In this document: in pieces, positions 1,809 through 50,959 of the stretch
Position numbering within the stretch: position 1 is the first letter of the stretch
Layout: the number at the start of each line of letters is the position of its first letter
Source of the DNA: Mobula hypostoma
Taxonomy: Eukaryota
Reading direction: 5' to 3'
Length of the DNA stretch: 64,000 bases
Assembly: GCF_963921235.1 (NCBI RefSeq)
Contig: NC_086106.1
Coordinates: 23,126,001-23,190,000 of the forward strand
Position numbers and translations under genes: made by a program
The notes under the pieces: model-generated
The model's input: only the letters and a program-made list of their open reading frames with translations
Told to the model about the DNA's origin: nothing
Databases searched by the model: none

Positions 1809-3214
1809 TGTCATAAGGGGGCGGCTGGGTACAGATCCAAATGCAAGGTACAGACACTGACGTACAAGGAACAGGACTAGGTAGTCAAGAAAGCAAGGGA
1901 AGTTGGGAACAAAGGATGCAGGACATGACACAGGCCCTGGACGAGACAAGGATACAGGACCTAGGCTAGGACTTCACTAACATAGCGAAACCAGGACATG
2001 GAACTTGGAACTTGGAGCCTGCGGTAGGACTCCGAGACAAACACTATACAGGGACCCAAAACCTGGATCTTGACAAGGGCTGGGAACTCGGAACTAGGTG
2101 AGGAGATGCCGAGGCTTGGATATGGATTCCGAGCCAGAGAGTGGGTAAGGACCCAGAACCTGGGACTTGACTCGGGCTCGGACTCCAGCAGTAGGCGAGT
2201 ACAAGAGGTGGCTACAGGAAGAGTAGTAGAAACAGGACTGGACGTGAGACCCTTGACAGGACAAGGGAACCCCAGCACTAGGCTGGGCAAAGTATTCCTG
2301 GACTGTGCGAGACAAATGGACAAGACAAGAACAATAAGCCGAGGCTTGGACAGCAGAAGATCACTGGACGTGGCTAGGACTGGACGATACCCGGAATTCT
2401 TGACTTGGTCGAGGCAGAGAGAGGAACACAGATCCTTGTTCAAGGGAGAGACAGGAACGCAGAACCCTGCTCGAGGGAGAGAAAGGAACGCCGAGCCTTG
2501 GTCGAGAGTGACAAAAACAAGGAACACAGCGCCTGGTCCCACCCTTGGAAACAGAACGCAGGGCGGAATTCATTGCAGAGAACGCAGAATGTGACAATAC
2601 GATTCCCAACAGAAGGGAGCGGCAGATGGTAGAACATTCCGAGCGAAGGCGTGTACACAGGGGGTTCACAGCATAGGTAGCGGCAAACGGCCGGACCTAC
2701 CTTGCGAATGCCTGGATATAGACGGTTCCGAACACCAGGTAATGGCAAACAACTGAAACGAACTATCGAAGGCGAGGGCAGAAAGACAGATGAAACACAG
2801 GGTAGCGACAAACGGCCAGACCTGCTTAGTGAAGACATGGTCACAGAGACATTTCCAACCAACGATAGACGGTTCCTTATTTTCCTCCAGTAATGGAACT
2901 TGACAGGGTTACAAGCGTGGCAATGTCTCAGGCGAGGCGAGGCAAGACTTCGGTCGAGGAAAGGTCAGGCAAGGCAAGGTAAGGGAAGGCTTCACATGAG
3001 GCAAAAGAAAGCAGCGGCAGGGAATGTATTCAGATTTTGTTTATAGACAGGAATAATCCAGCAACCAGAGACAGAATCCGAAGCTATTTATCAAGCCAGC
3101 ACAAACGAGAATCTGCTGTCTCATCTGGTACTGGGGAAAACAGGAAAACCTGGAACAAAGAACATGGACCGGACAGTGAACAGGAATGCGGATTTCACGG
3201 ACCTGACCATGACA
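1809..3214 (-). repeat. LTR-A (3'-most LTR of the array, 1406 bp)
   Basis: Termini tgtcata...catgaca. On the minus strand it is preceded by the purine tract AAGCGGGGGATAA (3227-3215). Confidence 0.85.
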
Positions 3215-3371
3215 TTATCCCCCGCTTATGGAAGCCCCCTGGCGACCAAAAGTCTTCCCCAGAATATGGACGACACGGACGGTCGTGGGCATTCAACTGG
3301 AGAGAACCAATGATAGCGTGAGTTAAATGACAGGGTCGGTGCCGCTGGGTCTAAGTCTTGCTGGACGGTTC
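3215..3371 (-). other. Internal region 1: PBS-position motif, decayed gag start, PPT
   Basis: Minus strand begins GAACCGTCCAGCAA directly after LTR-B, then TTAGACCCAGCG (ATGGACCCAGCG/MDPA-like), and ends AAGCGGGGGATAA before LTR-A. Confidence 0.7.
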
Positions 3372-4940
3372 TGGCATATGTGGGCGGCCTGGAGCGGACT
3401 CAAATGCAAGAAACAGATACTCAAATACAAGGAACAGACAAGGTAGTCAAGAAATCAAGGGAAGAGGGGAAGAAAGGATGTTGGACATGGCACAGGCCTT
3501 GGACGATACAAGGATACAGGGCCTGTGTTATGACTTCACTTGGATTGTGGAACCAGGACATGGAACTTGGAATTAGGAGTCTGCGCTGGGCTTCCGAGCC
3601 AGAGACTAGTCGAAGACCCAGAACCTAAGGCTTGACTCGGTTTCGGACCCCGGAACTAGACGAGGAGATGACGAGGCTTGGGTTCTGCGAGGCTTGGGTC
3701 CTTTGAGGGTTGGATATTGGCTCCGAGCAGCAGACTGGACAATGAGCTAAAACCTCGAACTTGAAACGGGCTCGGACTCCAGCAGTAGACGAGGAAAAGA
3801 CCTGGGTACAGGAGGAGGAGTGGCAAAAGTACAGGACGTGAGATTCCTGGACAAGACAAGGTATCCCCAGCACAGGACGAGGGAACCACAGCATCAGGCT
3901 GGGCAGAGTACTCCTGGGCTGGACGAGACACATGGACAAGACAAGAACACAAAGCAGTGGCTTGGACAAAACAAGATTCTTGGATGTGTCGAGGACTGGA
4001 CGACACCCAGAAGTCTTGACTTCATTGAGGGAGAGACAGGAACGCAGTCCCTTGGTCGAGGGAGATACAGGAACACAGCGCCTTGATCGAGGGAGAGACA
4101 GGAACGCAGAGCCCCGGTCCTGGGAGTCAAATGAACGCAGAGCCTCAAGCGAGGGAGAGACAGGGAAGCACAGCCTTTGTAGAACGACAGACAGGGACGC
4201 AGTCCCTAGGTCGAGCGAGAGACAGGAACATGGAACACAGAGCCGGGTCCCCACCTTCGAAACAGGACGTAGTGCTTGGATTCATACATAGTACACCGAC
4301 CCAGGACGGCTCCTTGTGTAGACGACGTAAGGCAGGGACTCATTACACAGAACGTAGAATACCACAAGACGGTTCCCAACACAAGATAGCGGCAGACGGC
4401 CGAACCTACCTTGCAAAGGTGAGTACACAAAGACAGATCATAACACTAGGGTGCGGCAAACAGCCAGACCTACCTAGTGAAGGCGTGGACACAGAGACAG
4501 TTCAAAACAACGACAGGCAGTTCTTTCTATTTTTCCAGCGATGGAACTTGATAGGGGTAAATACGAGGCTTTAGGCGAGGCAGGCGAGTCAAGGCTTCAA
4601 ACGAGGTGAGGCGGGCAAGCCTTCAGAAGAGGCGAGGCGAGTCAAGGCTACAGACGAGGCAAGGTGAGGCGAGGCAACGCTTCAGACGAGGCAAGCGAGT
4701 CAAGGCAAGCCAAGGCTTCAGGCGAAGCAAAAGTAGAGAGGCGAAGGGAAATGATTCATACAGGGGGTGTAGATAGGCACAACCCAGCAACCGGAGGGTG
4801 AATACTGAAGCTATTTCTGAAGCCAGCACAAAAGATAATCAGCTGCCTCAGCAGAAACTGGGAGAGAAAGGAAAACCTGGAATAAGGAACTAGACCGGAC
4901 AGTGAACAGGAATGCGGATTTTACGGAGCTGACCATGACA
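3372..4940 (-). repeat. LTR-B (middle, shared LTR, 1569 bp)
   Basis: Termini tggcata...catgaca. Same module order as LTR-A, with more 31-bp units. Confidence 0.85.
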
Positions 4941-5103
4941 TTACTCCCTATTCTATGGGAGCCTCCTGACGACCAAAAACGCTTCACCAGACCATGGACG
5001 ACAAGAGCGGTGGGGTGGGGGCATTTAACAGGAGAGAAGCCAGGATAGCGAGAGTTAAACGACCGTGTCTGTGTCGCTGGGTCCAAGTCTGACTGGTCTG
5101 TTG
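4941..5103 (-). other. Internal region 2 (homologous to 3215-3371)
   Basis: Minus strand CAACAGACCAGTCAGAC-TTGGACCCAGCG...AGAATAGGGAGTAA (PPT) before LTR-B. Confidence 0.7.
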
Positions 5104-7356
5104 TGTGATAATGAGCTAGCTGTGAGCAGACCCAAATGCAAGACACAGACACTGAAGTACAAGGAACAAACTGGGTAGTCAGGAAAGCAAATGAAGTGGG
5201 GAAGAAAGGAAGCAGGTCATGACAGAGTCCCTGGACGAGACAAGGATACAGGGCCTGGGCAAGGATTTCACAAGGATAGCGGAACTAGGACATGGAATTT
5301 GGAATTAGGAGCCTGAGCTAGGACTCCGAGCCAGAGACTAGAACAGTACTCAGAACCTGTGTCTTGACTCGGGCTCGGACCCCGTAACTAGGCAAGAAGA
5401 TGACAAGGCTTGGGTTCTTCGAGGACTGAGTTCTTTGAGTGTTGGATATAGACTCCGAGACAGAGACTGGACAAGGACCCAGAAACTGGGACTGGATTCG
5501 GGATCGGACTCCAGAAGTAGGCGTGGAAAATACGTGGGTACAGGAAGAGGAGTGGCAACCGGACTGGACTTGAGACTCCTGGACAGGACAAGCGAACCGC
5601 AGCACCGGGTTCTTGGATGTGGCTAGGACTGGACGAGAGCCCGAAGCCTTGACTTCTTCGAGGGAGAGAATGGAACGCACAACCTTGGTCGAAGCTGAGA
5701 CAGGAACGCAGAACCTTGGTCGAGGGAGAGACAGGAACGCAGAGCCTTGGTCGAGGGAGAGACAGGAAGGGAGAACCCTGGTCGAGGGTGGGACAGGAAC
5801 ATGGAACACAGAGCCGGTTCCCCTCCTTGGAAAGAGGACGAGGGCCGGGATTCATTGCATAGAACGCAGAATACGACAAGACGGTTACCAAAAGAAGCCT
5901 GCGGCAGACGGCCAGACATTCCCAGAGAAGGCGTGGAAGCAGACTAGACAAGGACCCAGAACCTGGGTGTTGACTCTGGCTCGGACCACGAAACTAGGAG
6001 AGGAGATATCGAGATTGGGTTGTTGACGCCTGGGTTCTTTGAGGCTTGGATATGTTCTCCGTGCCAGAGACTAAGCAAGGACCCAGAACCTGGGTCTTAA
6101 CTCGGGCTCGGACTTCAGAAGTAGGCGAGAACAAGACGTGGCTACGGGAAGAGTAGCGGCAACAGGACTGGACGTGACACTCCTGGACAGGACAAGGTAT
6201 CCCCAGCACCAGGCTGGGCAAAGTACTCCTGGGCTGGACAAAACACATGGACAAGACAAGAACATAAAGCCGTGGCTTGGACAGTACATGTTCTTGGATG
6301 TGGCTAGGACCGGACGAGTCCCCTAAGCCTTGACATGTTTGACGGAGAAACAGGAATGCAGAGCCGTGGTCAAGGGAGAGACAGGAACGCACAATATTGG
6401 TCGAGGGAGAGAAAGTAACGCAGAGTTTTGGTCGAGGGAGAGACAGGAACGCAGAGCCTTTGTCGAGGGAGAGACAGGAACGCAGAGCCGTTGTCGAGGG
6501 AGAGACAGGAACGCAGAGCTTTGGTCGAGGGAGAGACAGGAACATGGGTCACAGAGCCCGGAACCCTTCTTTGAAAAGAGAACGTAGGTCCGGGACTCAT
6601 ACACAGAACACAGATCCGGCACCCCTCCTTGGGTATAGGAAAGAAGAATGGGGCTCATTAAGCAGAACGCAGAATGCGACAGGACGGTTCCCAACACAAG
6701 GTAGAGGAAGACGGCCGAACCTACCTAGTGAAGGCGATGACACAAAGACAGATCACAACACTAGTTAGCTGCAAACGGCCTGAGCTACCTAGTGAAGGCG
6801 TGGACAACAGAATGTTCAAGAAAACGATAGACAGTTCCTGATCTTGCTCCAGCGATGGAACTTGTCAGGCGAGTCAAGTCCTCAGGCGCACGGAGGAGGC
6901 AGGCGAGGCGAGGCAAGGCTTCAGACGAGGCAAGTTGACGCAAGGCTTCAGACGAGGCAAGGCTAGGCGATGCAAGCATCAGACTGTGCAAGGCGAGGCC
7001 AGGCAAATCTTCACACGAGGCAAAACGAGGCGAGGCAAGGCGTCAGACGAGTTAAGGGGCGAGGCGAGGCAAGGCTTCAGACGAGGCAAAGCGAGGAAAG
7101 GCGAGACAAGGCTTCAGACGAGGCAACAAAATGCAGGCGAAGGGAAAGTTTTCAGACAGTGGGTATGAACTGGAACAATCCAGCAACCAAGGCTGAATCC
7201 TGAATTTATTTATGAAGCCAGCAGAAACGACAATCACATGCCTCAACAGAAACTGGGATAAAACAGAAAACCTGGAATAAGGAACGTGGACCGGACCGTG
7301 AACCGTGATTATTTTATTTTAGTTTTTTTTTTATAATTTGCCTACGGACCATGAGA
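5104..7356 (-). repeat. LTR-C (5'-most LTR, 2253 bp, with internal duplication)
   Basis: Termini tgtgata...catgaga. The block at about 5340-5940 recurs at about 6060-6760. Confidence 0.8.
6345..6545. repeat. 31-bp minisatellite (GAGGGAGAGACAGGAACGCAGAGCCTTGGTC) inside LTR-C
   Basis: Unit starts at 6345, 6376, 6407, 6438, 6469, 6500, 6531 (period 31). Further clusters near 2410-2510, 4026-4230 and 5640-5810. Confidence 0.9.
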
Positions 7357-8261: not shown

Positions 8262-8548
8262 TGTGACGACCCATTTTCTGGCACCCACGAACCGGCACAC
8301 GAAACAGCGCGCGCAGGCAGAGCGCCGACAGCAAAAAGGGCGCCAGGCCATCTTCACCAGCAGGGAGAAAATCCCGCGCGCAGAAAGGGTCTGGGAATAT
8401 GCATTCCCCACAGTAGTCCCGCCCAGGGAGGGCGGGAACGGGAAGGCTTTAAAGCGGGCCGCGAAGTTTGAATAAATCTCTGTCATCGCAACTCTAACTC
8501 ACCGACTCCGTGTGGTTATTCTAGCGCCGTATGTAGCACATCGCTACA
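8262..8548 (+). repeat. 5' LTR of Gypsy
   Basis: tgtgacgac...tcgctaca; contains AATAAA; direct repeat of 12345-12631. Confidence 0.97.
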
Positions 8549-8550
8549 AT

Positions 8551-8562
8551 TGGTGACCCCGA
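8551..8562 (+). promoter_or_regulatory. Primer-binding site complementary to tRNA-Trp
   Basis: TGGTGACCCCGA is the reverse complement of the vertebrate tRNA-Trp(CCA) 3' end ...UCGGGGUCACCA; it lies 2 nt after the LTR. Confidence 0.85.
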
Positions 8563-8588
8563 AGGCCCAAACGATATTTGGACCAGAG

Positions 8589-9662
8589 ATGACCGACGCT
8601 GCATCTGTTCACGCAGTTTCGTTAAAACTGCCAAGCTTCTGGACGCTGCGACACCATTTATGGTTCGAACAAGCAGAAGCACAATTCCACATTCGGCAGA
8701 TAACCTCGGAGTCCACTCGCTACTACTACGTGCTGAGCTCCCTCGACCAGGAGACTGCTGCACAAGTTGAGGAGTTTATACAGTCGCCCCCGGAGGACGG
8801 CAAATACACAGCATTCAAAGCCCTGCTCATAAGGACTTTTGGACTCTCACGGCGCGAACGAGCACGCCGCTTAATGCACCTGGATGGTTTGGGAGACAGG
8901 CCGCCGTCAGCATTAATGAAAGAGATGCTGGCCCTGGCTGAAGGACACAAGCCCTGCCTCATGTTTGAGCAGGCGTTCCTAGAGCAACTGCCCGAGGACA
9001 TATGCCTGCTGTTGTCCGACGCAGATTTCAGCAACCCCCGGGAGGTGGCGGCCCGAGCAGATGTGCTGTGGAATGCCAGGAAAGAGAGAGGAGCAAACAT
9101 CGCACAGATCACCAAGCCGCGTGCCCAACGACAGACCAGACCAGGCCCGGCAGCAGAGCCTACAAAACCCGGCGACGGGAGTGAGGAGCCCAACGAACAA
9201 TGGTGTTCCTACCACCAGCGGTGGGGCACGGAGGCCCGCCGCTGCAGACCGCCCTGCAAATTCCCGGGAAACACCAAGGCCCAGCCGCCGCCGATCGCTA
9301 CGTCGGCTGGCCATCAGGACAGCCTCCTGTACGTCTGGGACAAGCAGTTGGGACGCCGCTTTTTGGTCGACACCGGAGCGGAGATCAGCGTCTTACCTCC
9401 AACGAGTTACGACACCCGCAACAGAGAACCGGGACCCACCCTGAGGGCCGCTAATGGCAGCACAATACGAACCTACGGCACCCGCACGGTGTGGCTACAG
9501 TTCAGCGCCAGCCGGTCCACGTGGGACTTCACACTGGCCGCCGTGGCCCAACCACTGCTGGGGGCAGATTTTCTACGAACCCACAGCCTGCTGGTCGACT
9601 TGCAAGGGAAGCGATTAGTCCACGCCAAGACTTTTCAAACGTTCTCCCTGGGTGAAGCATAG
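8589..9662 (+). CDS. Gypsy gag plus aspartic protease, ending at an in-frame TAG
   Basis: MTDAASVHAVSLKLPSFW..WFEQAEAQF (gag), WCSYHQRWG..ARRCRPPC knuckle-like motif, FLVDTGAEISV protease site. Confidence 0.9.
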   Translation: MTDAASVHAVSLKLPSFWTLRHHLWFEQAEAQFHIRQITSESTRYYYVLSSLDQETAAQVEEFIQSPPEDGKYTAFKALLIRTFGLSRRERARRLMHLDGLGDRPPSALMKEMLALAEGHKPCLMFEQAFLEQLPEDICLLLSDADFSNPREVAARADVLWNARKERGANIAQITKPRAQRQTRPGPAAEPTKPGDGSEEPNEQWCSYHQRWGTEARRCRPPCKFPGNTKAQPPPIATSAGHQDSLLYVWDKQLGRRFLVDTGAEISVLPPTSYDTRNREPGPTLRAANGSTIRTYGTRTVWLQFSASRSTWDFTLAAVAQPLLGADFLRTHSLLVDLQGKRLVHAKTFQTFSLGEA

Positions 9663-12340
9663 TTGCCAGCCCCACACCTGGACTCCATCACGCTGTCCGA
9701 CGATGAATTCACCAGGGTCCTGGCGGATTTCCCATCAGTACTGACACCGCAGTCCACGGCAGCCTTGCCCAGACACGGAGTACAGCACCACATCCCGACC
9801 CAGGGACCACCCCTCCACGCCCGTGCTAGAAGGCTTCCCCTGGACAAGCTCCGACTGGCGAAGGAGGAGTTCAAGAAGATGGAGGAATTAGGGATCATAC
9901 GACGGTCCGACAGCCCATGGGCTTCCCCCCTTCACATGGTGCCCAAGGCAACGGGGGGCTGGAGACCATGCGGAGACTACCGCAGACTGAACGAGGCTAC
10001 AACGCCAGACCGCTACCCTGTGCCGCACATTCAAGACTTCGCAGCAAACCTACACGGCGCAAGGATCTTTTCCAAGGTAGACCTCGTCCGGGGATACCAT
10101 CAAATCCCTGTACATCCGGACGACATCCCCAAAACAGCACTTATCACCCCGTTCGGACTTTTCGAATTCCTCCGAATGCCGTTTGGTCTAAAGAATGCCA
10201 CACAGACTTTCCAGCGGCTAATGGACGCAGTGGGACGCGACCTGGACTTTGCATTCATCTATTTGGACGACATCCTCATAGCCAGCAGTAGTCGGCAGGA
10301 GCATCTGTCCCACCTCCGCCAGCTCTACTCCCACCTGAGTGAATTCGGCATTACAATCAATCCAGCCAAATGCCAGTTCGGACTTGACACCATCGACTTC
10401 CTTGGCCACAGGATTACTAAAGACGGGGCAACCCCGCTGCCCGCCAAGGTAGACGCGGTCCGCCACTTCCCCCGACCCAACACAATCAAAGGCTTGCAGG
10501 AATTCGTGGGTATGGTGAATTTCTACCACCGTTTCCTCCCCTCAGCAGCCCGAACCATGCGCCCCTTGTTCACTCTAATGTCGGGTAAGGGCAAGGACAT
10601 TACCTGGAACGAAGAGGCCGCAACCGCTTTCGTTAAAACCAAAGAAGCCTTGGCAAACGCCGCGATGCTAGTGCACCCCAGAACGGACGTTCCTACTGCC
10701 CTCACGGTGGACGCATCCAACACAGCAGTCGGTGGAGTGCTGGAAAAACTTATCGAGGGTCGCTGGCAACCCCTGGCGTTCTTCAGCAACACCTACGACC
10801 ACCCGAACTCAAATGCAGTGCTTTCGACTATACCTGGCAATTCGGCATTTCAGGTACTTCTTAGAAGGTAGGCCCTTCACCGCGTTCACAGACCACAAGC
10901 CGCTTACCTTTGCGTTCACTAAGGTGTCCGACCCCTGGTCGTCCCGCCAGCAGCGACATCTGTCCTACATCTCCGAGTACACGACGGACATCCGGCATGT
11001 CTCTGGAAAGAACAATGTCGTGGCAGACGTACTTTCCAGACCTACCATACAGGCCCTGTCCCAGGGGGTGGACTATGCAGCGCTGGCAGAGGCACAGCAG
11101 GCAGACGCTGAGATCCCCAGTTACAGGACTGCAGTCTCCGGTTTGCAGCTCCAAGACCTCCCCGTAGGCCCAGGTGAGAGGACCCTATACTGTGTGACGT
11201 AGCTACCGGCCAACCCCGCCCCGTTGTCCCAGCAGCCTGGCGCCGGCGGGTGTGCGAATCCATTCACAAATTAGCGCACGCCTCCATCAGGACAACTGTC
11301 CGGCTGGACTCCAACAAGTTCGTGTGGCATGGACTTCGTAAACAGGTCAGTGAATGGGCCAAAACGTGTATGCAGTGCCAAACAGACAAGGTGCAGCGGC
11401 ACACCAAGGCTCCACCGTAGCGGTTCGAACCCATCCGCCGGAGGTTCGACCACATCCATGTGGATATCGTGGGGCCTCTGCCAGTGTCACGAGGAGCGCG
11501 GTACCTCCTAACTATGATAGACCGGTTCACCAGATGGCCAGAGGCAGTCCCGCTCAGCGACACCACCTCCGAATCCTGCGCCAGAGCACTGATCGCAACC
11601 TGGGTAGCACGCTTTGGGGTACCGGTCCACATTACCTCCAACAGGGGCGTCCAGTTCACCTCCAGCCTGTGGTCGGCTATGGCCAGAGTTTCAGGAACAC
11701 AGCTACACCACACAACTGGCTACCACCCACAGTCGAACGGACTAGTGGAGCGCTTCCACCGTCACCTGAAATCGGCTCTCATGGCACGCCTGGAGGGGCC
11801 TAACTGGGTGGACGAACTTCCCTGGGTCCTGCTCGGAATCCGCACGGCGCCCAAAGAGGATCTACACAACTCGTCGGCCGAGTTGGTGTACGGCGCACCC
11901 CTGGTCGCCCCAGGAAAGTTCATACAAGCCCCAAGGGGGCAAAATGAAGAACCCACAGCAGTCCTGGACTGACTACGGGAGAGGCTCGGTAACCTGGTCC
12001 CCATACCCACTTCACAGCACGGACAGAGCCCGACCTTCGTACCCAAAGACCTGCAGAACTGTAAGTTTCTTTTTGTACGACGGGGCGGACACCGGGCACC
12101 GCTACAGCGGCCCTACGAGGGGCCGTTTAAGGTGATCAGGAACAACGGGTCCACGTTCGTGCTGGACATTGCGGGGGGAAGAGGAGGTTTTCACGGTGGA
12201 CCGACTCAAACCGGCCCATGTGGACTTGGCGCAACCGGTCCAGGCTCAGGCACCGCGGCGCAGGGGCAGACCTCCCAAACAGAGGCCGATCCAGACTGTG
12301 GACATTGGGGAAGGTATCGCCGGTTCTGGGGGGCGGGGGG
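9663..12340 (+). pseudogene. Gypsy pol (RT, RNase H, integrase) with frameshifts and stops
   Basis: [25 protein letters not shown]; RNase [11 protein letters not shown]; integrase DIVGPLP..TMIDRFTRW..SNGLVERFH. Indels near 10787, 10818 and 11187; stops at 11418-11420 and 11970-11972. Confidence 0.93.
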
Positions 12341-12341
12341 G
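12328..12341 (+). promoter_or_regulatory. Polypurine tract (G-rich)
   Basis: GGGGGGCGGGGGGG, 3 nt before the 3' LTR. Confidence 0.85.
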
Positions 12342-12344
12342 TTA

Positions 12345-12631
12345 TGTGGCGACCCATTTTCTGGCACCCACGAACCGGCTCACGAAACAGCGCGCGCAGG
12401 CAGAGGGCCGGCGGCAAAAAGGGCGCCAGGCCATCTTCACCAGCAGGGGGAAAATCCCACGCGCAGAAAGGGTCTGGGAATATGCATTCCCCACAGTAGT
12501 CCCACCCAGGGAGGGCGGGAACGGGAAGGCTTTAAAGCGGGCCGCGAAGTTTGAATAAATCTCTTTCATCGCAACTCTAACTCACCGACTCCGTGTGGTT
12601 ATTCTAGCGCTGTGTGTAGCACATCGCAACA
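12345..12631 (+). repeat. 3' LTR of Gypsy
   Basis: tgtggcgac...tcgcaaca followed by TSD ATAC. Confidence 0.97.
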
Positions 12632-12956
12632 ATACTATTAGCTTAGTCCTATACACGACTTAATGTGCAGAGGTACGGGGAAATACAGAGAAAGCAAATA
12701 CAATCTCATTTTTCCTCTCCAAAAGAAAACCATAAGAATTTGCAAACAAAGCGAGATATTATAAGCCAAGAAATCCACTATTTGTTCAAGTAAATCTTTA
12801 CAATTCAGAGATTTCGTACATTGAAAAATAATAAGAATTATATATAAAGTAAAAATGGACAGTTACCACAAAGTATCCAAAGACTGTTTAAAATGCGAGA
12901 ACGTCAACATGATTAGAGAGGAACATGTATATTTCAAACACAAAGCATAAGAAGAA

Positions 12957-13362: not shown

Positions 13363-16097
13363 TGTCATAATGGGGACGGCGCTGGGAGCGCACGCAAATA
13401 CAAGGCACAGACACTGAAGTACCAGGAAAAGGCTAGGGCTAGAGGCTAGGATTAGGGATGTGACTGGATGCTGTCTAGGAGCTGGGACAGGAACACAGAC
13501 CTGGGCGAGGGCATTGGCTAAGCTAGCGGGACTAGGACAACGGACTTGGAACTAGCAGCCTGGGCTTGAACTCCAAGCAAGAGACTGGACAAGGACCCAA
13601 AACCTGAGTGTTGACTCGGGCTCTGAACCCTGAACCATGCGAAGACTTGACGTGGCTACAGGATTGGACATAGCATGGTTTCATCCGGGCTTGGATTGTT
13701 CCTGGCTTGGGCTCCTCGAGGCATGGTTTCCTCGAGCCTTGGGTTCCTCGAGGCGAGGACATGACGAGGCTTGGATTCTTCAAGGCGAGGACATGATGAG
13801 GCTTAGTTTCTTCGAGACGAGAACATGAAAAGGCTTTGGTTCGGACTCCGAGCCAGAGACTGGACAAGGTCCAAGAACCTAGGTCTTGACTCGGGCTCGG
13901 ACTCCGGAACTAGGCGAGGACATTTCGTGGCCTTATGAGAAAGAAACCTCGGAACACAAAACCGGAAGCCTTGACTTTACCTTGGCGAGGACAGGAAAAC
14001 ATAGCCTTGGTCTGGAGCACCGGAACACGGAGCTTTGGACTTGAAGGACAGGAACATGGAACACAGAGCCAGGACCACTCCCTGGCAACAGGACGTAGGG
14101 CCGGGACTCATTCAAAGAATGTTGAATACGACGAGACGGTTCCCAACACTAGCGGCTAACTGTCGGAACATGTTCTTTATTCCAGGCATTACAGTTTTCC
14201 CCATTTCCTACTGAGGCAGCTGATTCTCATTTGGGCTGGCTTCATAAATGCCTTAGGGATTCAGCTTCTGGCTGCTGGATTGTTCCTATCCATAACCCCT
14301 CTCTGAATACCTTCTATTTGTTGCCTCGCCTTGCCTTGTCTGAAGCCTTGACTCGCCTTGCCTCTGTGAAGCCTCGCCTTGCCTCGCCTGTAGACATGGT
14401 TCGCCTGTAGCCTTGCCTCGTCAAAAGCCACACCTGAAGCCCTGCCTCGTCTGAAGCCTCGCCTGAAACCTTGCATCGTCTGAAGCCTCGCCTGAAGCCT
14501 TTCCTAAAGGCTTGCCTCATTTGCAGCCTCTCCTCGCCTTGACTCGTCTGAAGCCTTGCCACGCCTTGCTTGTCTGAAGCCTTGCCTCGCCTGTAACCCT
14601 CGCCTACACCGCTGCCACGTTCCATAGCCGAAGCAAGATAAGGAACTGTCTGCTGCTGTTTTGAACAGTCTCTACGGCTGCGCCTTCGCTAGGTAGGCTA
14701 TACCTAGTGTGAGATCTGTCTTTGTGCCCTTGCCTTCGCTAGGAAGGTCTGGCCGTTTGCGAGGACCTGGCGTTGGGAACCGACTGTCTCCACGTTTCAC
14801 TGGGTAGGTCCGGCCGTCTGCCGTTGGGAGCCGTCGTGTCGTATTCTGCATTCTGTGTAATGAGTTCCGGCCCTACGTCCTGTACCCAAGGAGGGCTCCC
14901 GGCTCTGTGTTCAATGTTCCTGTCTCACCCTCGACCAAGGCTCTGCGTTCCTGTCTCCCCCTTTGAAAAAGGCTCTGCTTTCTGTCTCGCCCTCGATCAA
15001 GTAAAGGCTACCGGGTCTCGTCTAGTCCTAGCCACGATATAAGAACCTTGTCCGGTCGAAGCTACGCTTTGTGTGCTTGTCTTTTCTATGTGTCCGGCCA
15101 AGCCCAGCAGTACCTTGCCCCGCCAGATTCTGGGGATCCTTCGTCCTCTGCCGGGGTTCCCTTTTCCGGTCCAGGAGTCTCACGTACAGTCCTGTTGCCA
15201 CTCGTCATCCGGAAGGTACGTATTGTCCTCGCGAGGTTCTGGGTCCTAGACCGTTCTCGGCTTGGAGTCCATACCCAAGTCTCGAAAAACCAAATACTCG
15301 TCATGTCATCACCCAGATCTGTGGTCCGAGGCCGAGTCAAGACCTAGGTTCTGGATTCTTCTCCAGTCCCTGGCTCGGAGTCCAAGCTCAGGCTCCTCGT
15401 TCAAATTTACACGTCCTGGTTCCGCTGTGCTAGTGAAGCCCTAGCCCAGGCCTTTTATCCTAGTCCCGACCAATGCCTCTGTCAGGTCCAGCGTCCTTTC
15501 TTCCCCGCTTCCCTTTATATCTTGACTAACCTAGTTCTGTTCCTTGTACTTCAGTGTCTGTGCATTGCATTTCGGTCCGTCCCAGCGCCCCCCATACTAT
15601 AACAGACACAGAGACAGTTCCGAGCACTATGTAGCGGCAGACAGCTGGAATGGACTCGCGGAGACGTGGACACAGAGACATTTCCAACACAACGATAGAC
15701 AGTTCCTTATCTTGACACAGCAAAGCTCCGGTTTCGCTACGTTGTTTGAATTTGACAAGGTTGCCGGCAAGGCTCCAGGCACAGGTTGCAGGCAAGGCTC
15801 GAGGCACTGGCTGCAAGCAAGACTTCATAAGGAAAGGGAAGAGAAGTGAACAGTCCAGCTTCAGGGTAACGGCAAAGACTGCCTGGCTTACCCAACGGAA
15901 GCGCGGACAGGATACTGACGAGACGAGCCAGCCACAACACTCGAACCCAGGGCCACTTATATTCCTAGCCTAAGACGAGTGTCAGGTTCCGATGATTAAG
16001 CCTAACTGAAAGAATGGACAGTCGGAAGACATGGAGTCCGGAGTCCACGGACCGAACCCTGAACCTGAACGCGGAAATCACGGACCGGACCATGCTA
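13363..16097 (-). mobile_element. Solo LTR of the miniature-LTR family, host to a nested copy
   Basis: tgtcataatgggg...ggaccatgcta, homologous to LTR-A/B/C. Perfect 5-bp TSD CCTTA at 13358-13362 and 16098-16102. Confidence 0.88.
14161..15604 (+). mobile_element. Oppositely oriented LTR of the same family nested in the solo LTR
   Basis: Reverse complement of the LTR modules, ending ...catactataaca. About 37 bp are missing at the left end and there is no TSD. The host LTR resumes at 15605. Confidence 0.82.
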
Positions 16098-24479: not shown

Positions 24480-25485
24480 GGAAGAGTGGCAGGTAATTTT
24501 CCAGAAGTCGATTTGCTAAGTGGCATGATCTCCGGGGTGGCGCTGGGTGCGCAGCTAATGCCCCCAAACAACTCTCACCCGCGTCCTCCTGGCAGGCCAC
24601 CATGCGCCTCCTCACCAGCAGGGTGTTGGTGCCCTCCAGAAACGCATCACAACCCGTCGCACCAGGGTCCGTTCACATCAGTATTAACGATTCACGACCC
24701 TCTGACACCCACACATTGGCCTGCAACAGCGCCAGTTACACTGACCAATAACTGCCACCCGGACAATTACTGTCACTGCTACGCCAAATCTCCAGTTCCC
24801 TTACTATTGTCAAAGATGAATGCACTGCAAGCAATTTAGTTGCCGCCATAGCCGGAAAGATGCACTGACAAATTTCCACCGATCACCTGACACCGATATG
24901 GAGGTGTTGTTTGTCACTTCTAGTCGAATGAATTGCAATTCCCTACGCTTTCAGATTGCTGGCAGCTCTCACTACGGGGTAATTGACCCTAACAGTTCAA
25001 CAACCGTCACAAGCCCGGCTGCTCAAACTTTCAACCAATCCCTTCCGCTCTTCCGCAACCGAGCATTGCCACTCATATAACAAACTGAGAGATCCGTTCA
25101 GCCCACGTCTAGTACGCCTTCGGCCCTTCCCACCTGATAGTATGGACAGCCCCTGGCCCCGCCTCACCCGGGGCACCAATACACAATGCCAATCCCACCT
25201 CTCTGACGTCAGCGCAAGCTCGTGCTGAAGCTAGGACCGAGCCCGCCATTTTATCCAACTCTTGTGCCATAGTGTCAACTTCGCCATCAGCGGAAACCAG
25301 ACTCAAAAATCGTATTAGCAATTCATGCAGGGTAGGAATATTCACCTCACCTAGCCCGTTACTCACCGCAATCCCACAGAGGCAGACATCACTAACCGCA
25401 ATCCCACAGGGACACACCAGCACCGATTTCAATAGGGCAATCATACAGCACCCCACTGAATCAAATCGACGGTGGAAGCCACACC
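24480..25485 (-). mobile_element. Gypsy internal remnant X (PNMA-like gag, post-protease linker), internally deleted
   Basis: IPTLHELLIRFLSLV..CIGAPGEAGPGAVH (gag N-terminus) and LYEWQCS..LVESLS (PNMA-like core). About 75-80% similar by eye to 27690-28470. Confidence 0.75.
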
Positions 25486-26092
25486 TGTAACACTCGCTTT
25501 GCCAAGTGGCGTGATCTTGGGGGTAGCGCCCCGTGCCCGACCAAACCTTAGCACTCTTGTTTGGCTGGAGGCTGCGTGTTGTGCTCCCTGTTTAACATCA
25601 GTACCCCGAAATAACATTCAGACCACAATGTGCCGTTAACCGATTAAGATTTTATATTTATGTATGTGGTTAGGAGAGAAAGAAAAGAAAAGGAAAACAA
25701 ATAAAAGGCGCCAATAAACTCAGAAAACCTGTCCAGTGCACAAACATTTGAGCTCACGGATTTCCTTTCGCTGATCCTCCTTCACTAGCAGTCGATCCAG
25801 GGCTTCCGCCCCGAGCCCAGGCCCAGCGGGTTCGGCACCCGTCTCCTCAATCCACCTTTTCTCTCTTCATCCTGTTCGCGCTTCCTCCCCCATGCCCGCG
25901 CAAACTAACAGCTTACACACAAACAGAAAGAATAACATCTATCCCAATTAGTTAGCAAACGAATGCGAGTCCACTTATCACTAATTATAATCCAAACATG
26001 CTGCTACAGAGAACATTACCTCGTCAGTTAAAGTTACAGATAAACCATTTTATTAGCCTTAGCAAGTAACATGAAAGGAGAAACGCCTTACA
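25486..26092 (-). repeat. LTR shared between Gypsy copies Y (upstream) and X (downstream), 607 bp
   Basis: Minus strand tgtaaggcg...gagtgttaca (TG...CA), preceded by the pol 3' tail of Y and followed by the gag of X. Confidence 0.65.
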
Positions 26093-28470
26093 GTCTCCAG
26101 CTACACAATTTAGTGATGTCCTCATGACTTCTGAATAACTCTCAACCCCTTCCTGCAGACAAAAAAAGAACATTCTAATTACAGAACAGTGACATTGTTT
26201 CCCAAAGAGTAGACCTAACGCCCTGTTCCTCATGTACCACTTAGGCCAACCTCTTTGGGAGTTTCCTTATCCTCCGAGACTTCCGTACCCCCTCACCTAC
26301 ACCCTTCAGACTCGGAAACTACTGGGAGTACTCTGGGTCGGCTTGCCAAATCCTCTCTCAATCTCTCACTCATGCTCCACACTGCAACTCGGAGCTCCCT
26401 GTCCCGTGTCCAGGGGCCCTCGACTTTTCCTTCAGGGTCCTGCTGTAACCGGGATGCCCAGACACACCCCTCCTCACTACCCCTGACTCATTGGGAGAAA
26501 TGGCAAATATATCTTCACGATGTGGGCATGTACCAAATATCCAGCACATCATCCTTCTAATACTTATTCTTCCCCATTTTCTCGATTGTTAGCTGCTGGT
26601 TGATTTTCTTCCAACTGAAGCATTTACCCTGGGCTGCCTCTGCAGCCACTTCAGCCTCCTGCAAACGAGACGTCAGCTTCTTCTTTCACTCCTCTGCCTC
26701 CACCCGCAGACGCAGAAGTTCGGATCACGCTTCGTGTTCATCTCCATCTAGGACACAATAACACCACCAGCTCCTTCTAATCTGTTCTGGGTCGATTTCT
26801 TGAGTTGGTCATTGCTTCGTCTCTCTGGATTAATTCATCAGTAAATGACCGCAGTTTCGGCTCGGAATTCGGTTTCGCCGTCTCCTCTGCGAAGAGCGTG
26901 GACTCCCATTGTTCAATGGTTGTCAAAAATTGCAGCACTAGGTCTCCTGCATTTCTGAGCGTTCAAATGAGCGGTGCAAATGTCCTCACTCAGAAGCTGC
27001 GTCCTTCTTCAGAAATGGCACTGGTCCAAAGAAAAGTTTACTTCGTGAATCCCTAGTCGCCCTGGATCCCTCAGTCGCTTCGCTTCAAAGTTTTCCAAGG
27101 CGAATCCCAATGCTAAGAGATCATCCAAATACAGCAAAACTCCAAACACCTCCACGCCCCACATGGTCTTCCTCATGCCCCGCGGGCAGGTTGCAGGGGC
27201 TCCGGATATGCCCTTTGGCATACTTTCGGACCGGAAGAATCCTACGGGATCTATAAAGGCGGTCTTCATGTCGGCCTTCATCTTCACTTGTCGGCCTCAC
27301 TCATCGGAGTCTGGCAACATCCACTCTTCAAATCCAGCACATTACACCACGTCGCACCGCTGTGACAGACCATAGCGCCTTAGGTACTTAGGACCGTATA
27401 CTGGTCAATAACGGTGCTCCTGTTCAGAGTCCTATAATCCACACACATATTCTGCATATGATTTCCACGGCAGCAGTGGCCTGTCGCAGTAGACGCTCTC
27501 TCACTGACCTATCTTCAGCGTGAACTCTTCTCCCTGTGGTATATCGGAGCTTCTACAAAGTGGGTCTCACCCTCAGATACTTCCCCCGTGCCGAAAAGCC
27601 ACCGGCTCTCGTTTAAATTTGGTACCGGCCCTGTGCTGCTACACACGTCCCCACAAGGAGCTCTAAACACTGGGTGCACAGAAAATGCCCCCAAACAGCT
27701 CTCACCCGCCTCCACCAGGCAGGCCCACATGCGCCTCCTCACCAGCAGGATGTTGGTTCCCTCCAGGATCGAAACACTACCCGTCGCACCAGGGTCCGTT
27801 CACATCAGCATTCACAATTCACGACCCTCTGACACACATGCATTGTCCTCCAAGAGCTCCAGTTTCACTGACCAATAACCGTATTTTGGATAATCACTGG
27901 CACAAGTACCCCAAATCTCTGGTGCCCATGAACTGTACAACAACTTGATCTGCGCCCCAACGTCGAGGATGACTTTAGCATAGCTTCCATCTATCCGGAA
28001 CGACAACCGTGGAGTGGTCCCTCTAAGCCTTCAGGAATAGGGTTTTTCCTTTCGGGAGTTACTTGGTACATTGCTGGGAACATGCTCCCCCAGAGTCCCC
28101 AAGCCGTTCCCCCACTGGGCCTCTATTAAGTTTCCCAACACCTCTATGATCAGCTGAACAACTGAGTGAGGGGCTGATCACTTTAATGGATTCTCCCGGC
28201 ACTGCAAGCAATTTAGCTGCTCCCCCCACCCCGCAGCCGGAGAGACACACTAAAAACGTTCACCAATCTCCTGACACCGGTATGCAGGTGCTGAATGTTA
28301 CTTCCAGAGGAATCAAATGCATGTTCCCACGCTCCGAGATAGCTGGCAGCTGTCACTACGGGGTAACTGACACTGACAGTTCTAACACCATCACAAGCCC
28401 GCCTACTCAAACTTTCAACCAATCCCTGCCCTTTTCGCACAACCGCCCACTGCCACTCATATAACACCAC
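26093..28470 (-). mobile_element. Gypsy internal remnant Y: gag core, protease, RT, myosin-like insert, 3' tail
   Basis: LYEWQWAVV..LVESLS (gag); AKVILDVGAQ..IWG..DYP..GY.SVKLE (protease); KTAFIDPVGFF..MPKGISGAPAT..LYLDDL (RT); VRKSRRIRKLPKRLA (typical pol C-terminal tail) near 26290-26245. Confidence 0.82.
26581..26985 (-). pseudogene. Intronless fragments of a sarcomeric myosin heavy chain rod (MYH/MYH16-like) inside Gypsy Y
   Basis: Minus strand: IEQWESTL..E..K..SEPKLRSFTDEL..RDE (26917-26805), RLEGAGGVIVS*MEMNTKRD.ELLRLRVEAEE (26783-26689), KKKLTSRLQEAEVAAEAAQGKCFSWKKINQQLTIE (26685-26581). These are colinear with three separate myosin rod regions. Confidence 0.78.
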
Positions 28471-29606: not shown

Positions 29607-31570
29607 AAAGGCCATCTCAAACCCTACCTCCCATATAAGCCCCCACCTTCAATTCCTCCATATACCTGTCTAGTAGTCTCTTAAACTTCACTAGTGTATC
29701 TGCCTCCACCACTGACTCAGGCAGTGCATTCCAGGCACCAACCACTCTCTGAGTAAAAAAAAACTTCCTCTAATATCCCCCTTGAACTTCCCACCCCTTA
29801 CCTTAAAGCCATGTCCTCTTGTATTGAGCAGTGGTACCCTGGGGAAGAGGCGCTGGCTATCCACTCTATGTTTTCCTCTTATTCTCTTGCACACCTCTAT
29901 CATGTCTCGTCTCATCCTCCTTCTCTCCAAAGAGTAAAGCAGTAGCTCCCTTAATCTCTGATCATAATGCATACTCTCTAAACCAGGCAGCATCCTGGTA
30001 AATCTCCTCTGTACCCTTTCCAATGCTTCCACATCCTTCCTATAGTGAGGTGACCAGAACTGGACACAGTACTCCAGGTGTGGCCTAACCATAGTTTTAT
30101 AGAGATGCATCATTACATCGCGACTGTTAAACTCTATCCCTCGACTTATGAAATCTAACACCACATAAGCTTTCTTAACTACCCTATCCACCTGTGAGGT
30201 AACTTTCAGGGATCTGTGGACATGTACTCCTGGATCCCTCTGCTCCTCCACACTACCATGTATCCTACCATTGACTTTGTACTTTGCCTTGGAGTTTGAC
30301 CTTCCAAAGTGTACCATCTCACACTTCCCTGGGTTGAACTCCATCTGCCACTTCTCAGCCCACTCCTGCATCCTATCAGTGTCTCTCTGCAATCTTTGAA
30401 AATCCTCTAAACTATCTACAACACCACCAACCTTTGTGTCGCCTGCAAACTCTCCAACCCACCCTTCTACCCCCACATCCAGGTCGTTAATAAAAATCAC
30501 GAGAAGTAGTGGTCCCAGAACAGATCCTTGTGGACACCACTAGTTACAATCCTCCAATCTGAATGTACTCCCTCCACCACCACCCTCTGCCTTCTGCAGG
30601 CAAGCCAATTCTGAATCCATCTGGCCAAACTTCACTGCATCCCATGCCTTCTAACTTTCTGAATAAACCTACCGTGTGGAACCTTGTCAAATGCCTTACT
30701 AAAATCCATATAGTTCACATCCACTGCACTACCCTAATCTATATGCCTGGTCACCTCCTCAAAGAACTCTATCAGGCTTGTTAGACACGATCTGCCCTTC
30801 ACAAAGCCATGCTGACTGTCCCTAATCAGACGATGATTCTCTACATGTCTATAGATCCTATCTCTAAGAATATTTTCCAACAGCTGTCCTACCACAGACG
30901 TAAGGCTCACTGGTCTATAATTACCCGGACTATCCCTACTAAGTTTTTTGAACAAGGGGACAACATTCCCCTCCCTCCAATCCTCCGGTACCATTCCCGT
31001 GGACAACGAGCACATAAAGATCCTAGCCAGAGGCTCAGCAATCTCTTCTCTCGCCTCGTGGATCAGCCTGGGGAATATTCCGTCAGGTCCCGGGGACTTA
31101 TCTGTTTTAATGTATTTTAACAACTCCATCACCTCCACTCCCTTAATATCAACATGCTCCAAAACATCAACCTCACTCATATTGTCCTCACCATCATCAA
31201 GTACCCTCTCATCGTGATTACCGAAGAGAAGTATTCATTGAGAACCTCGCTCACTTCCGCAGCCTCCAGACACATCTTCGCACCTTTATCTCTAATCGGT
31301 CCTACCTTCACTCCTGTCATTCTTTTTTTCTTCACATAATTGAAAAATGCCGTGGGGTTTTCCTTTACCCTACTCTCCAAGGCCTTCTCATGCCCCCTTC
31401 TTGCTCTTCTCAGCCCCTTCATAAGCTCCTTTCTTGCATCCCTATAATCCTCAATAGACCCAACTGATCCTAAACCTCATGCCTGCTGCCTTCTTACACC
31501 TGACTAGATTTTCCACCACACGTCACCATGGTTCCTTCACCCTACCATTCTTTATATTCCTCACCGGGAC
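29607..31570 (-). mobile_element. CR1 LINE fragment (RT to 3' end), terminal tail lost
   Basis: ORFs 30734-31180 (KSPGPDGIFPR..PGNYRPVSLTSVVG..SQHGFVKGRSCLT) and 29691-30500 (269 aa, FINDLD..FAGDT). Confidence 0.92.
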
Positions 31571-48705: not shown

Positions 48706-49597
48706 ATAGATACATAGATACATTGATAAATAGATCGATATATACGCAACGGTTTAATATTTTAGGCTCGCATTAGCAAATTTCGAGTGCAATGAGCAAT
48801 TCTGTTCAGCTCATTAGGCAAAATGTTTTTTGGGCTTTGGAAGGTCTCCACGAACGTTCCCCGGAAATAGAACATTAACGAGTGAGAAGCATCTCATCGT
48901 TCTGGTTCTGTACTCCCTGGAGTTTAGGACAATATGAGAGCAGAGAGGGAACACTTTGAATCTATTGCAATAATAAAAAGTACAGATAGAATTGAACGTC
49001 GGAGGGTGTTTCCTGCACTGGGATAGTCTACGAACAGAACACAGATTCAGCCTATCAATACGTGCCAAAGGAACGGAGATAACGGGAAATATTTTGAGAC
49101 AGAGGGTAGCTGAAATACGCGAATTCAGAAACAATTGTGGAGTTCAAGATGCTATATATATTTAACTTCGTTGATAAGATCTTGATTATCACGTACATCA
49201 ATGATTACATGGAAAATACATTGGAATTACATTGAGGGGCAATGAAACAGACATGACCGAATAATTGAGCAGTCTTGCTGTTGGACTGCCATAAATCTGC
49301 TATTATGTCTTAGGGTCCGACTAATGTTATATGTGTTACTCCATTGATGATCGACGATATGAAATACTATCTCACCCTCGTTCGATATGATTAGTGTTTG
49401 AATGCAAGTAAAGGGACAGTTAAGTTTCAATGCAATCAGAGTTCTGCGCCACAGTTAATAAGCACTTTTCTAAATAAGGTCTCAATTGAAGATCGAAAGC
49501 AGAAGGTCAATAAATATAAGACCTTTCTATATTTCATTTTCACGTTCCTTTTGATTAGTTCGCCATCTAGCGAAACCTCACTGCATTAGCAGTTATA

Positions 49598-49636
49598 GAT
49601 TTTTGTCTAGGTTCACAATGGTGCTGCAACACTATG
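49598..49636 (-). other. 23-spacer recombination signal sequence with variant heptamer
   Basis: Minus strand CATAGTG (49636-49630), 23 nt spacer TTGCAGCACCATTGTGAACCTAG, then ACAAAAATC (49606-49598), abutting the V coding end. Confidence 0.9.
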
Positions 49637-50127
49637 AGATTCATGGCACAGAGATACACGGCAGAGTCGGAGACGACAGTGTCGTCGATCCTGAGCTCTG
49701 CAATTTTGGTAGTTTTATTGAATGTAGACGAGATTCGGTGGGTGAGAATACTATTTCTGGTCAGCAGTCCTGCTACAATACGAAGCGGATAAATTGGATA
49801 CTGGCCGGAGCGTTGGCTATACCAATAAACGTCTGGGTTTGTATTGGTTGTTTGGAACGTGCATTTAAGTGTTATTTTACTTTTCCCTTCGATACACATG
49901 TTAGTGACCAACTGGAGTACATTGTCTTCAATGCTATAGATTACAACAGAAAACAAAATCAGATCTGTCAGCAACATTGCTTTCTTCAGTTTTGTCAAAG
50001 ACATATCACCAAGAAAATAGCAGTGGTATCGTTGAAAATATGAAATGTTTGAATTTATCGGAAGGAAATATTTACCGAAAAGTGACATAAGTATGAGAAG
50101 CAATACCAGGTGTTTTTTTATGTTCAT
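49637..50127 (-). pseudogene. T-cell receptor alpha/delta-type V gene segment (leader exon 50127-50076, intron, V exon), likely ORF/pseudogene
   Basis: Leader MNIKKHLVLLLILMSLF plus phase-1 G/GTAAAT donor. V domain DNVLQ..TLKC..DVYWY..ELRI....SDSAVYLCAM with the canonical Cys/Trp/Cys, followed by a 23-RSS. Confidence 0.82.
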
Positions 50128-50231
50128 TCTTGAGTCCCGGTAACAAACTGTCGGAGTAGAGATGCAGATCAGCCTGCCCAGCAGCATGCTGAATGAACGA
50201 ATCAGAGATAGCGACACGCTATTACGGTGCA

Positions 50232-50278
50232 ACGTCAACTTGTAATGGGAGGGGTTCAATGCATTTGCAGTCATGTGA
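50232..50278 (-). promoter_or_regulatory. Candidate V promoter motifs (CRE-like TGACGT, octamer-like, E-box)
   Basis: ACGTCA at 50232-50237, ATTTGCAG (1 mismatch to the octamer) at 50263-50270, GTCATGTGA at 50270-50278; 105-150 bp upstream of the ATG. Confidence 0.3.
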
Positions 50279-50959
50279 TTTTAATCGTCCAATAGAGCCT
50301 GCAGCGCAAAGTTTGAAAGTGTGTTCATTCTAAACTAATTATTTTGCCACCATTCACTTCAAATTGTAGTCACTTTTTTTTTTTTTTGTCCAAATTCGTA
50401 CTCCAAGGAGAAACTTGTATGTATGGGTTTTTACTCAAGTTTGATTAGATTCTGCGCCTGTGAGTTGGGTCAATGGGCAGAGCTCCATGTCGCAGTCAGA
50501 GTGCACAGCTTCACCGATCGTTAGATCAGTATATATATATCGTTCCTCATAGGTAGATGAAAACCTGTCACTGCCACTAGAAATCTACTATTTCCGTTCC
50601 CCGCGATAATAATAATAATAATAAAAAATCATGTGGATGGCGGCCGTCAGGTGTGCTGTTTGTACCTTGAACTGTCGGTAGGACATTGTTTTTTTTATTA
50701 CAATTTAATGTGATATTACTTTCATTATCGAACGTCTGTTTACCGAAAGACTGTTCAACTAACTTTTGCAGGCCCTAGTTGAAGCGTAGGAAAATAGCAA
50801 TCAAAATCATTACTTTCAGAATGGATAACCTATTTACGTAAACCTTGAGTGAAAGAGATCGAAGGAAGTACGTTTGATCAAACCGGCCATTTTGTCCCTT
50901 CGGCACCTCCGTAAACATCAGGTCTAAAACTTTTACAAAGTTCCATAGAATTGAGCTGC

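Follow-up and report, generated by a model that had tools for sequence, protein, structure and literature searches.

The window analyzed here is a 64,000-nt stretch of the genome of the ray Mobula hypostoma (NC_086106.1, positions 23,126,001 to 23,190,000 of the forward strand; G000:C40:23126001-23190000), and its minus strand carries one member, now decayed, of a ray family of non-autonomous Gypsy LTR retrotransposons; in this copy three pieces of a myosin rod lie within pol. The features of this copy, in window coordinates and in the direction in which the element is read, are as follows.

28090..28466, minus: 3′ part of a gag remnant (78% colinear match to the full-length copy L190 from 28466 down)
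27617..28012, minus: decayed protease region (tblastn to residues 495-642 of the gag-pol protein P0018, E = 3e-23)
27012..27463, minus: RT remnant through YLDD, C-terminally truncated (tblastn to P0018 residues 866-1010, E = 5e-30; translation)
26784..26996, minus: myosin piece 1, donor exons A (3′ part), B and C (first 3 nt), CDS nt 97-336
26704..26783, minus: myosin piece 2, donor exons G (3′ part) and H (5′ part), CDS nt 766-846
26581..26703, minus: myosin piece 3, donor exon L preceded by the end of exon K, CDS nt 1471-1593
26370..26580, minus: pol C-terminal tail, common to myosin-free relatives, ending at the family stop codon (26372-26370)
25486..26092, minus: LTR of 607 bp, TG...CA (match to the LTR of copy L119; ends read)
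24543..25485, minus: start of a second internal region, truncated and also of this family (78-83% match to L190; repeats D14 and D20)

The element is cut off upstream of gag, where it has no 5′ LTR and abuts CR1-type LINE pieces (a LINE RVT_1 match lies at 29691-30539). RNase H and integrase are absent after the RT remnant, a single LTR is kept with the 5′ half of the copy missing, and the polypurine tract before that LTR is degraded; the second internal region behind the same LTR holds a primer-site-like start, gag and protease. Elsewhere in the window, a different and younger Gypsy element occupies 8262-12633 on the plus strand; its 289-nt LTRs are 96% alike, and a few stops interrupt a coding region that comprises a DUF7041 gag, protease, RT, RNase H and integrase. 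Complex nested repeats lie at 1830-7300 and 13486-15687, with a period of about 1.6 kb and with units of 129 nt, of 64 nt and of short AGGCG-rich sequence, and an immunoglobulin V-set exon (Pfam E = 2e-9; minus strand, 49567-50280), with a possible leader upstream, resembles an antigen-receptor V segment. An Rfam scan of the window returned no match.

A sequence-only reading of this locus had placed three pieces of myosin rod at 26581..26985, between an RT remnant and the pol tail of a PNMA-gag Gypsy element. Both the pieces and their Gypsy context are real, and the location was right, although the true 5′ end lies 11 nt further (insert 26996-26581, minus strand). The pieces are scattered across three minus-strand frames by stops and small indels; piece 3 by itself matches MYH7 1379-1422 in the PDB (E = 2e-4), the other two frames searched singly against the PDB gave no match, and a Pfam scan of the short window pieces did not recover Myosin_tail_1. 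In a less decayed natural copy the 151-aa myosin part matches myosin-4 (E = 1e-11). At the nucleotide level the insert is identical to the spliced host donor at 347 of 416 nt (83.4%), with blastn E-values of 6e-55, 3e-20 and 4e-31 for the three pieces, and all four host splice junctions that it crosses are precisely intron-free (26870 and 26787 in piece 1, 26748 in piece 2, 26684 in piece 3), which bears out the mRNA origin that had been proposed. Piece 1 also has private deletions of 4, 1 and 22 nt. Pieces 1 and 2 are joined by a shared 429-nt in-frame deletion and pieces 2 and 3 by a shared 624-nt in-frame deletion; the latter join falls within a 6-nt exact microhomology at an L.EE motif, as the earlier reading had anticipated from an E.EE motif. 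The three pieces go back to a single capture, of about 1.6 kb of coding sequence, which deletions then shortened step by step.

The donor is a MYH16-like gene at G000:C68:14480490-14737200 on the plus strand (about 14.48-14.74 Mb), whose exons A-M join to 1840 stop-free nucleotides. In copy L119, donor exons A-H and part of K/L are precisely spliced together, nine exons in all that span about 180 kb of the host gene, with identities of 80-96% per exon and 91.8% overall. The earlier description of the source as MYH16-like holds, but the gene is a long-branch paralog rather than MYH16 itself: in an 18-sequence rod tree it falls outside the MYH16 clade, as its sister on a long branch, a placement that is unsure for that reason, and the sequence that joins shark MYH16 comes from another locus, on C36. 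The insert gave short matches alone to this true MYH16 locus (best blastn E = 9e-6). A genome search with a fast-myosin rod exon returned ten typical sarcomeric loci, MYH16-like loci and longer forms of the element; the fast-cluster genes, the genes on C2 and C40 and MYH16 on C36 were rejected as donors, their matches being short or weaker. Nothing was found by blastn and tblastx against the first 30 myosin loci, most of which are non-muscle-type exons.

No motor exons were found at the donor among the scored candidates for two head exons (54 of 54 and 17 of 17 examined), nor in the 250 kb before the first found exon at 14,480,490. Judged from the assembly, the donor looks like a rod-only (motor-less) MYH16 paralog, with an assembly fault or a very distant head as alternatives; such a paralog would be of separate interest for muscle evolution. 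The gene appears intact, with very long introns and rod exons continuing to the C-terminus, and lies about 560 kb from the fast myosin cluster, at the edge of which there is a broken fast-myosin rod exon with no matching head exon (L092, G000:C68:16025091-16025348, minus strand). The donor's first exon had no cover in three sequencing runs that we guess to be RNA, which says nothing on its expression. A literature search on MYH16 paralogs and sharks, which covered few subscription papers, found no description of the donor. The genome also contains long uninterrupted Myosin_tail_1 matches with stops, at C18:48.745M (L031), C50:30.689M (L032), C184, C157, C21:138.69M, C22:72.797M, C12:196.9M and 197.1M, and C9:98.786M (all G000), which are likely processed pseudogenes of non-muscle myosins; at those of the loci that were tested, no Gypsy flank of the chimeric family was found.

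The closest full protein to the element is the PNMA-gag Gypsy gag-pol of Hypanus sabinus (P0018; PF14893, PF00078, PF17917 and PF00665, giving a parent order of gag-PR-RT-RH-IN), and loci L229, L231 and L233 are colinear with this full gag-pol. Full chimeric copies have LTRs of about 630-720 bp with TG..CA ends, a purine tract preceding the 3′ LTR and, behind the 5′ LTR, a conserved motif which we take to resemble a tRNA-Pro primer site; L118 and L119 have LTRs of about 630 bp and 4-bp target duplications. Long LTR pairs are about 85-93% alike, and no young copy was seen among those examined. Integrase is absent in all 21 of the 10-kb chimeric loci compared with P0018 (the integrase at L188 belongs to a neighboring element, and L189 has no match whatever to P0018), and RNase H has been lost in the subfamily of the window copy.

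The expectation of a multi-copy family in a constant Gypsy context was borne out genome-wide. A 441-nt stretch of the window yielded 802 first-look candidates and 39 other scored places 75-82% alike, and all 29 other loci fetched have Gypsy sequence flanking the insert; the copies are dispersed and differ in the DNA that surrounds them. Allowing two mismatches, a 23-nt motif at the 3′ end of the insert occurs at at least 525 places (reversed control, 0); since this motif recovers only 52 of 70 known copies, the family total is roughly 700 or more. A search of the genome with the RNase H end returned five chimeric and 35 other places, and among eight of the latter that were fetched as 10-kb stretches none had myosin, three had integrase, four had an in-frame integrase deletion and one was cut off. 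The myosin-free, integrase-less sisters (L227, L228, L230 and L232) likewise read from linker into tail in one frame, so that keeping the frame may extend to the wider family, beyond the chimeras.

The myosin part of the chimera also matches uncharacterized predicted proteins of Mobula hypostoma, M. birostris and Hemitrygon akajei, and the Hemitrygon protein has the identical piece 2/3 join; because these proteins come from two families of Myliobatiformes, the chimera is either old or was transferred. In one Hemitrygon gene model (P0011) part of the chimera is spliced in among exons unrelated to it, which is probably an error of annotation, although exonization is possible. A search of sequencing runs listed none of RNA that holds the chimera; contigs of three runs guessed to be RNA cover it at mostly less than 95% identity and give neither strand nor start of a transcript, one of them, 988 nt long, spanning the tail, the myosin and the 429-nt join. 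A literature search that reached few subscription papers and neither Repbase nor Dfam found no description of a myosin-carrying Gypsy family.

Deletions were scored against the donor in 70 distinct loci, the near-universal 624-nt deletion being present in 55 and the 429-nt deletion of the window's subfamily in 32. All 11 shared deletion clusters of at least 6 nt were in frame, vs. 17 of 35 private ones (Fisher P = 0.003), and comparison with the fraction of donor microhomologies that lie in frame (0.45-0.70 for k = 3-8) gave P-values of 0.0001-0.02. One of the shared clusters merges two 9-nt events, and a further shared deletion of 72 nt is in a separate alignment; 20 further loci, drawn from the matches to the 23-nt motif, added a new shared 120-nt deletion (4 copies) and a newly shared 60-nt deletion, both in frame, for an overall count of 15 of 15 shared deletions of at least 6 nt. 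Among the large private deletions, too, several keep the frame. Of the 16 shared indel clusters, five are out of frame, at 1-2 nt each; we attribute them to repeated slippage at short repeats of different subfamilies and, in one case, to misalignment at the RT junction, across which the frame actually runs on unbroken.

Substitutions point to a frame that is kept open independently of what it encodes. Across the whole frame, none of 230 subfamily-shared codon changes created a stop compared with 128 of 3127 rare changes (P = 0.0002), and at non-CpG sites the corresponding counts were 0 of 192 and 100 of 2509 (4.0%; P = 0.001), with missense/silent ratios of 2.92 for shared and 2.81 for rare changes. 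In gag, pol and tail the stops numbered 0 of 180 shared and 96 of 2499 rare changes (P = 0.003). Within the myosin, shared changes from the donor comprised 34 silent, 71 missense and 0 stop, vs. 253 silent, 576 missense and 39 stop among rare changes (stops P = 0.017; missense/silent 2.09 vs. 2.28, P = 0.74). Copies were chosen by similarity, subfamilies were set by shared deletions rather than by a tree, and columns with fewer than four covering copies of a group were excluded from the stop counts. One CpG codon in the protease-RT linker, a stop in three of three covering copies of one small subfamily (a column under the four-copy threshold) and in two of four of another, is a possible shared stop. 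All subfamilies end at a common stop codon about 280 nt before the 3′ LTR, which is present in 18 of 18 covering copies of the window's subfamily.

The dN/dS within subfamilies is about 1, as expected after insertion, and from one subfamily to another the net dN/dS likewise scatters around 1, though the intervals are wide, in the myosin, gag, protease, RT and tail; the lone exception is a two-copy “full” group, for which the value against the donor was just below (0.32). No selection on the peptide of any of these parts was found. It had been suggested that intact family members might keep the myosin in frame with pol as a cargo domain. The fusion exists, with the RT YxDD, the myosin and the pol tail in one frame in several less decayed copies and with the shared forms of the pol-myosin junction reading in frame, but the myosin is a passenger rather than a conserved cargo domain, because dN/dS is about 1 in every part.

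Taken together, these results suggest that translatability, not the myosin itself, likely helped the element spread, the constraint likely acting on the open frame rather than on the protein, for the stability of the RNA. In RSV, an avian retrovirus with an RNA stability element, unspliced genomic RNA with a long 3′ UTR behind a premature stop becomes subject to NMD (PMC2925335), a case that offers a mechanism for the ray family by analogy; Ty1 packages from translating RNA, without cis preference (PMC3945221). NMD of unspliced RNA with a long 3′ UTR would be the likeliest cause here, with translation-packaging coupling second, and a need for translation at the RNA level, of either kind, is an explanation that we moderately favor. 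The stronger proposition, on which we are evenly divided, is selection on translation itself over tens of millions of years: the 700-codon ORF (gag remnant, protease, RT, captured myosin and tail) would encode nothing needed, yet transposition would require that it can be translated as far as the stop by the 3′ LTR, with the captured piece of a motor-less MYH16 paralog as a neutral reporter.

The same capture could have been followed by frame keeping without any biological cause, through coiled-coil periodicity and few master copies. Coiled-coil periodicity does itself favor in-frame deletion (45-70% of microhomology pairs, the higher share being reached at k = 8), a dN/dS of about 1 everywhere is in keeping with it, and so is the possible shared stop at the CpG codon; nevertheless we consider this explanation unlikely in view of the absence of stops among shared non-CpG changes, the same stop-free pattern in gag, pol and tail, which have no such periodicity, and the single common stop codon near the 3′ LTR. 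A second alternative, that the fusion protein is used, with the myosin coiled coil as a spacer, dimerizer or decoy whose exact sequence matters little, accommodates the kept frame, the in-frame reading of both capture junctions and the retention of some myosin in every sampled form, given that coiled coils tolerate substitutions. The missense/silent ratios of shared and rare myosin changes are nonetheless alike, different subfamilies delete different and partly non-overlapping parts of the myosin, the myosin-free sisters spread too, and gag, protease and RT drift equally, so that we judge a used protein improbable as well.

The ends of the insert point to how the capture of this passenger came about. 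About 60 nt of the integrase-less linker gave way to the myosin, and the 5′ switch (start of exon A) and 3′ switch (exon L) share 10 of 11 nt and 11 of 13 nt, respectively, with the myosin-free sisters, a degree of microhomology expected at about 2 per 100,000 random position pairs at each end. A LINE-made processed pseudogene that landed in a Gypsy copy and then spread with it, imaginable in a genome with abundant LINEs and other intronless myosin-like stretches, is very improbable for an insert that ends at microhomology with no poly(A) or target duplication of its own at either inspected end, replaced element sequence rather than interrupting it, and consists of an internal coding piece only, in sense orientation and in frame.

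A likely single capture by double template switch would fit into a series of six steps. An autonomous gag-pol parent, of which integrase-bearing relatives are observed, would first have lost integrase in frame; this form is seen in the sisters, and the insert most likely entered a lineage already without integrase. A myosin mRNA would then have been co-packaged and, by template switching during reverse transcription as in the model of Tan et al., about 1.6 kb of it swapped in for about 60 nt of the linker. Subsequent spread would have been mobilized in trans by autonomous partners; the repeated in-frame shortening is observed, and selection against early stops would complete the series, most likely because a premature stop at a distance from the 3′ LTR lays the RNA open to NMD, or through translation-packaging coupling.

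Acutely transforming retroviruses likewise arise by recombination with host mRNA, lose pol and depend on a helper; their v-onc products are selected as proteins, unlike the frame-only keeping of the ray family. Maize Bs1 may be a precedent for frame keeping, a 1994 paper on it reportedly naming nonrandom mutation of the captured fragment in its title. As described in a review (PMC13317346), Bs1 is similarly an LTR element with transduced host coding segments and a hybrid ORF, but it is a plant case with three donor genes, described as a new chimeric gene, whereas the ray family has one donor and no amino-acid conservation. The FAM8A1 capture by HERV-K, described in Tan et al. (2016; PMC5131818), shares retroviral-type recombination with a host mRNA, loss of pol and helper dependence; that copy is an untranscribed pseudogene, while the ray family keeps its frame, though not its protein. 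The same paper describes LTR-mediated retrocopies of animals, with a double template-switch model, in which a partial spliced mRNA replaces an internal part of the ORF, both LTRs are kept, microsimilarity is found at both switch points, the result is often in frame, and further retroposition as a non-autonomous element occurs. By all testable features the ray capture itself belongs to this known class. Unlike the retrocopies described there, the ray family is old, occurs at hundreds of places and in two ray families, and has a long deletion series and a stop-free but sequence-neutral frame; what is new relative to the cases compared is scale, age, the completeness of the set of intermediates and the fact that frame can be told apart from protein.

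As a whole, we hold with reasonable confidence that the locus is a relic of a ray Gypsy element carrying a spliced, in-frame myosin passenger, with a frame that was probably held open in the interest of the RNA. Its fossil series is unusually complete for a vertebrate, comprising the parent, the integrase-less sister, the full capture, the deletion ladder and a donor that the genome still contains, and it allows selection on an open frame to be separated from selection on a protein. This is relevant to the question of why ORFs persist in defective LTR elements and to NMD as a means of filtering retrotransposons. For those who annotate genomes it is a warning that an open frame in a transposon should not be taken as evidence that its protein is useful, and that the annotations of rays contain many false myosin-like models.
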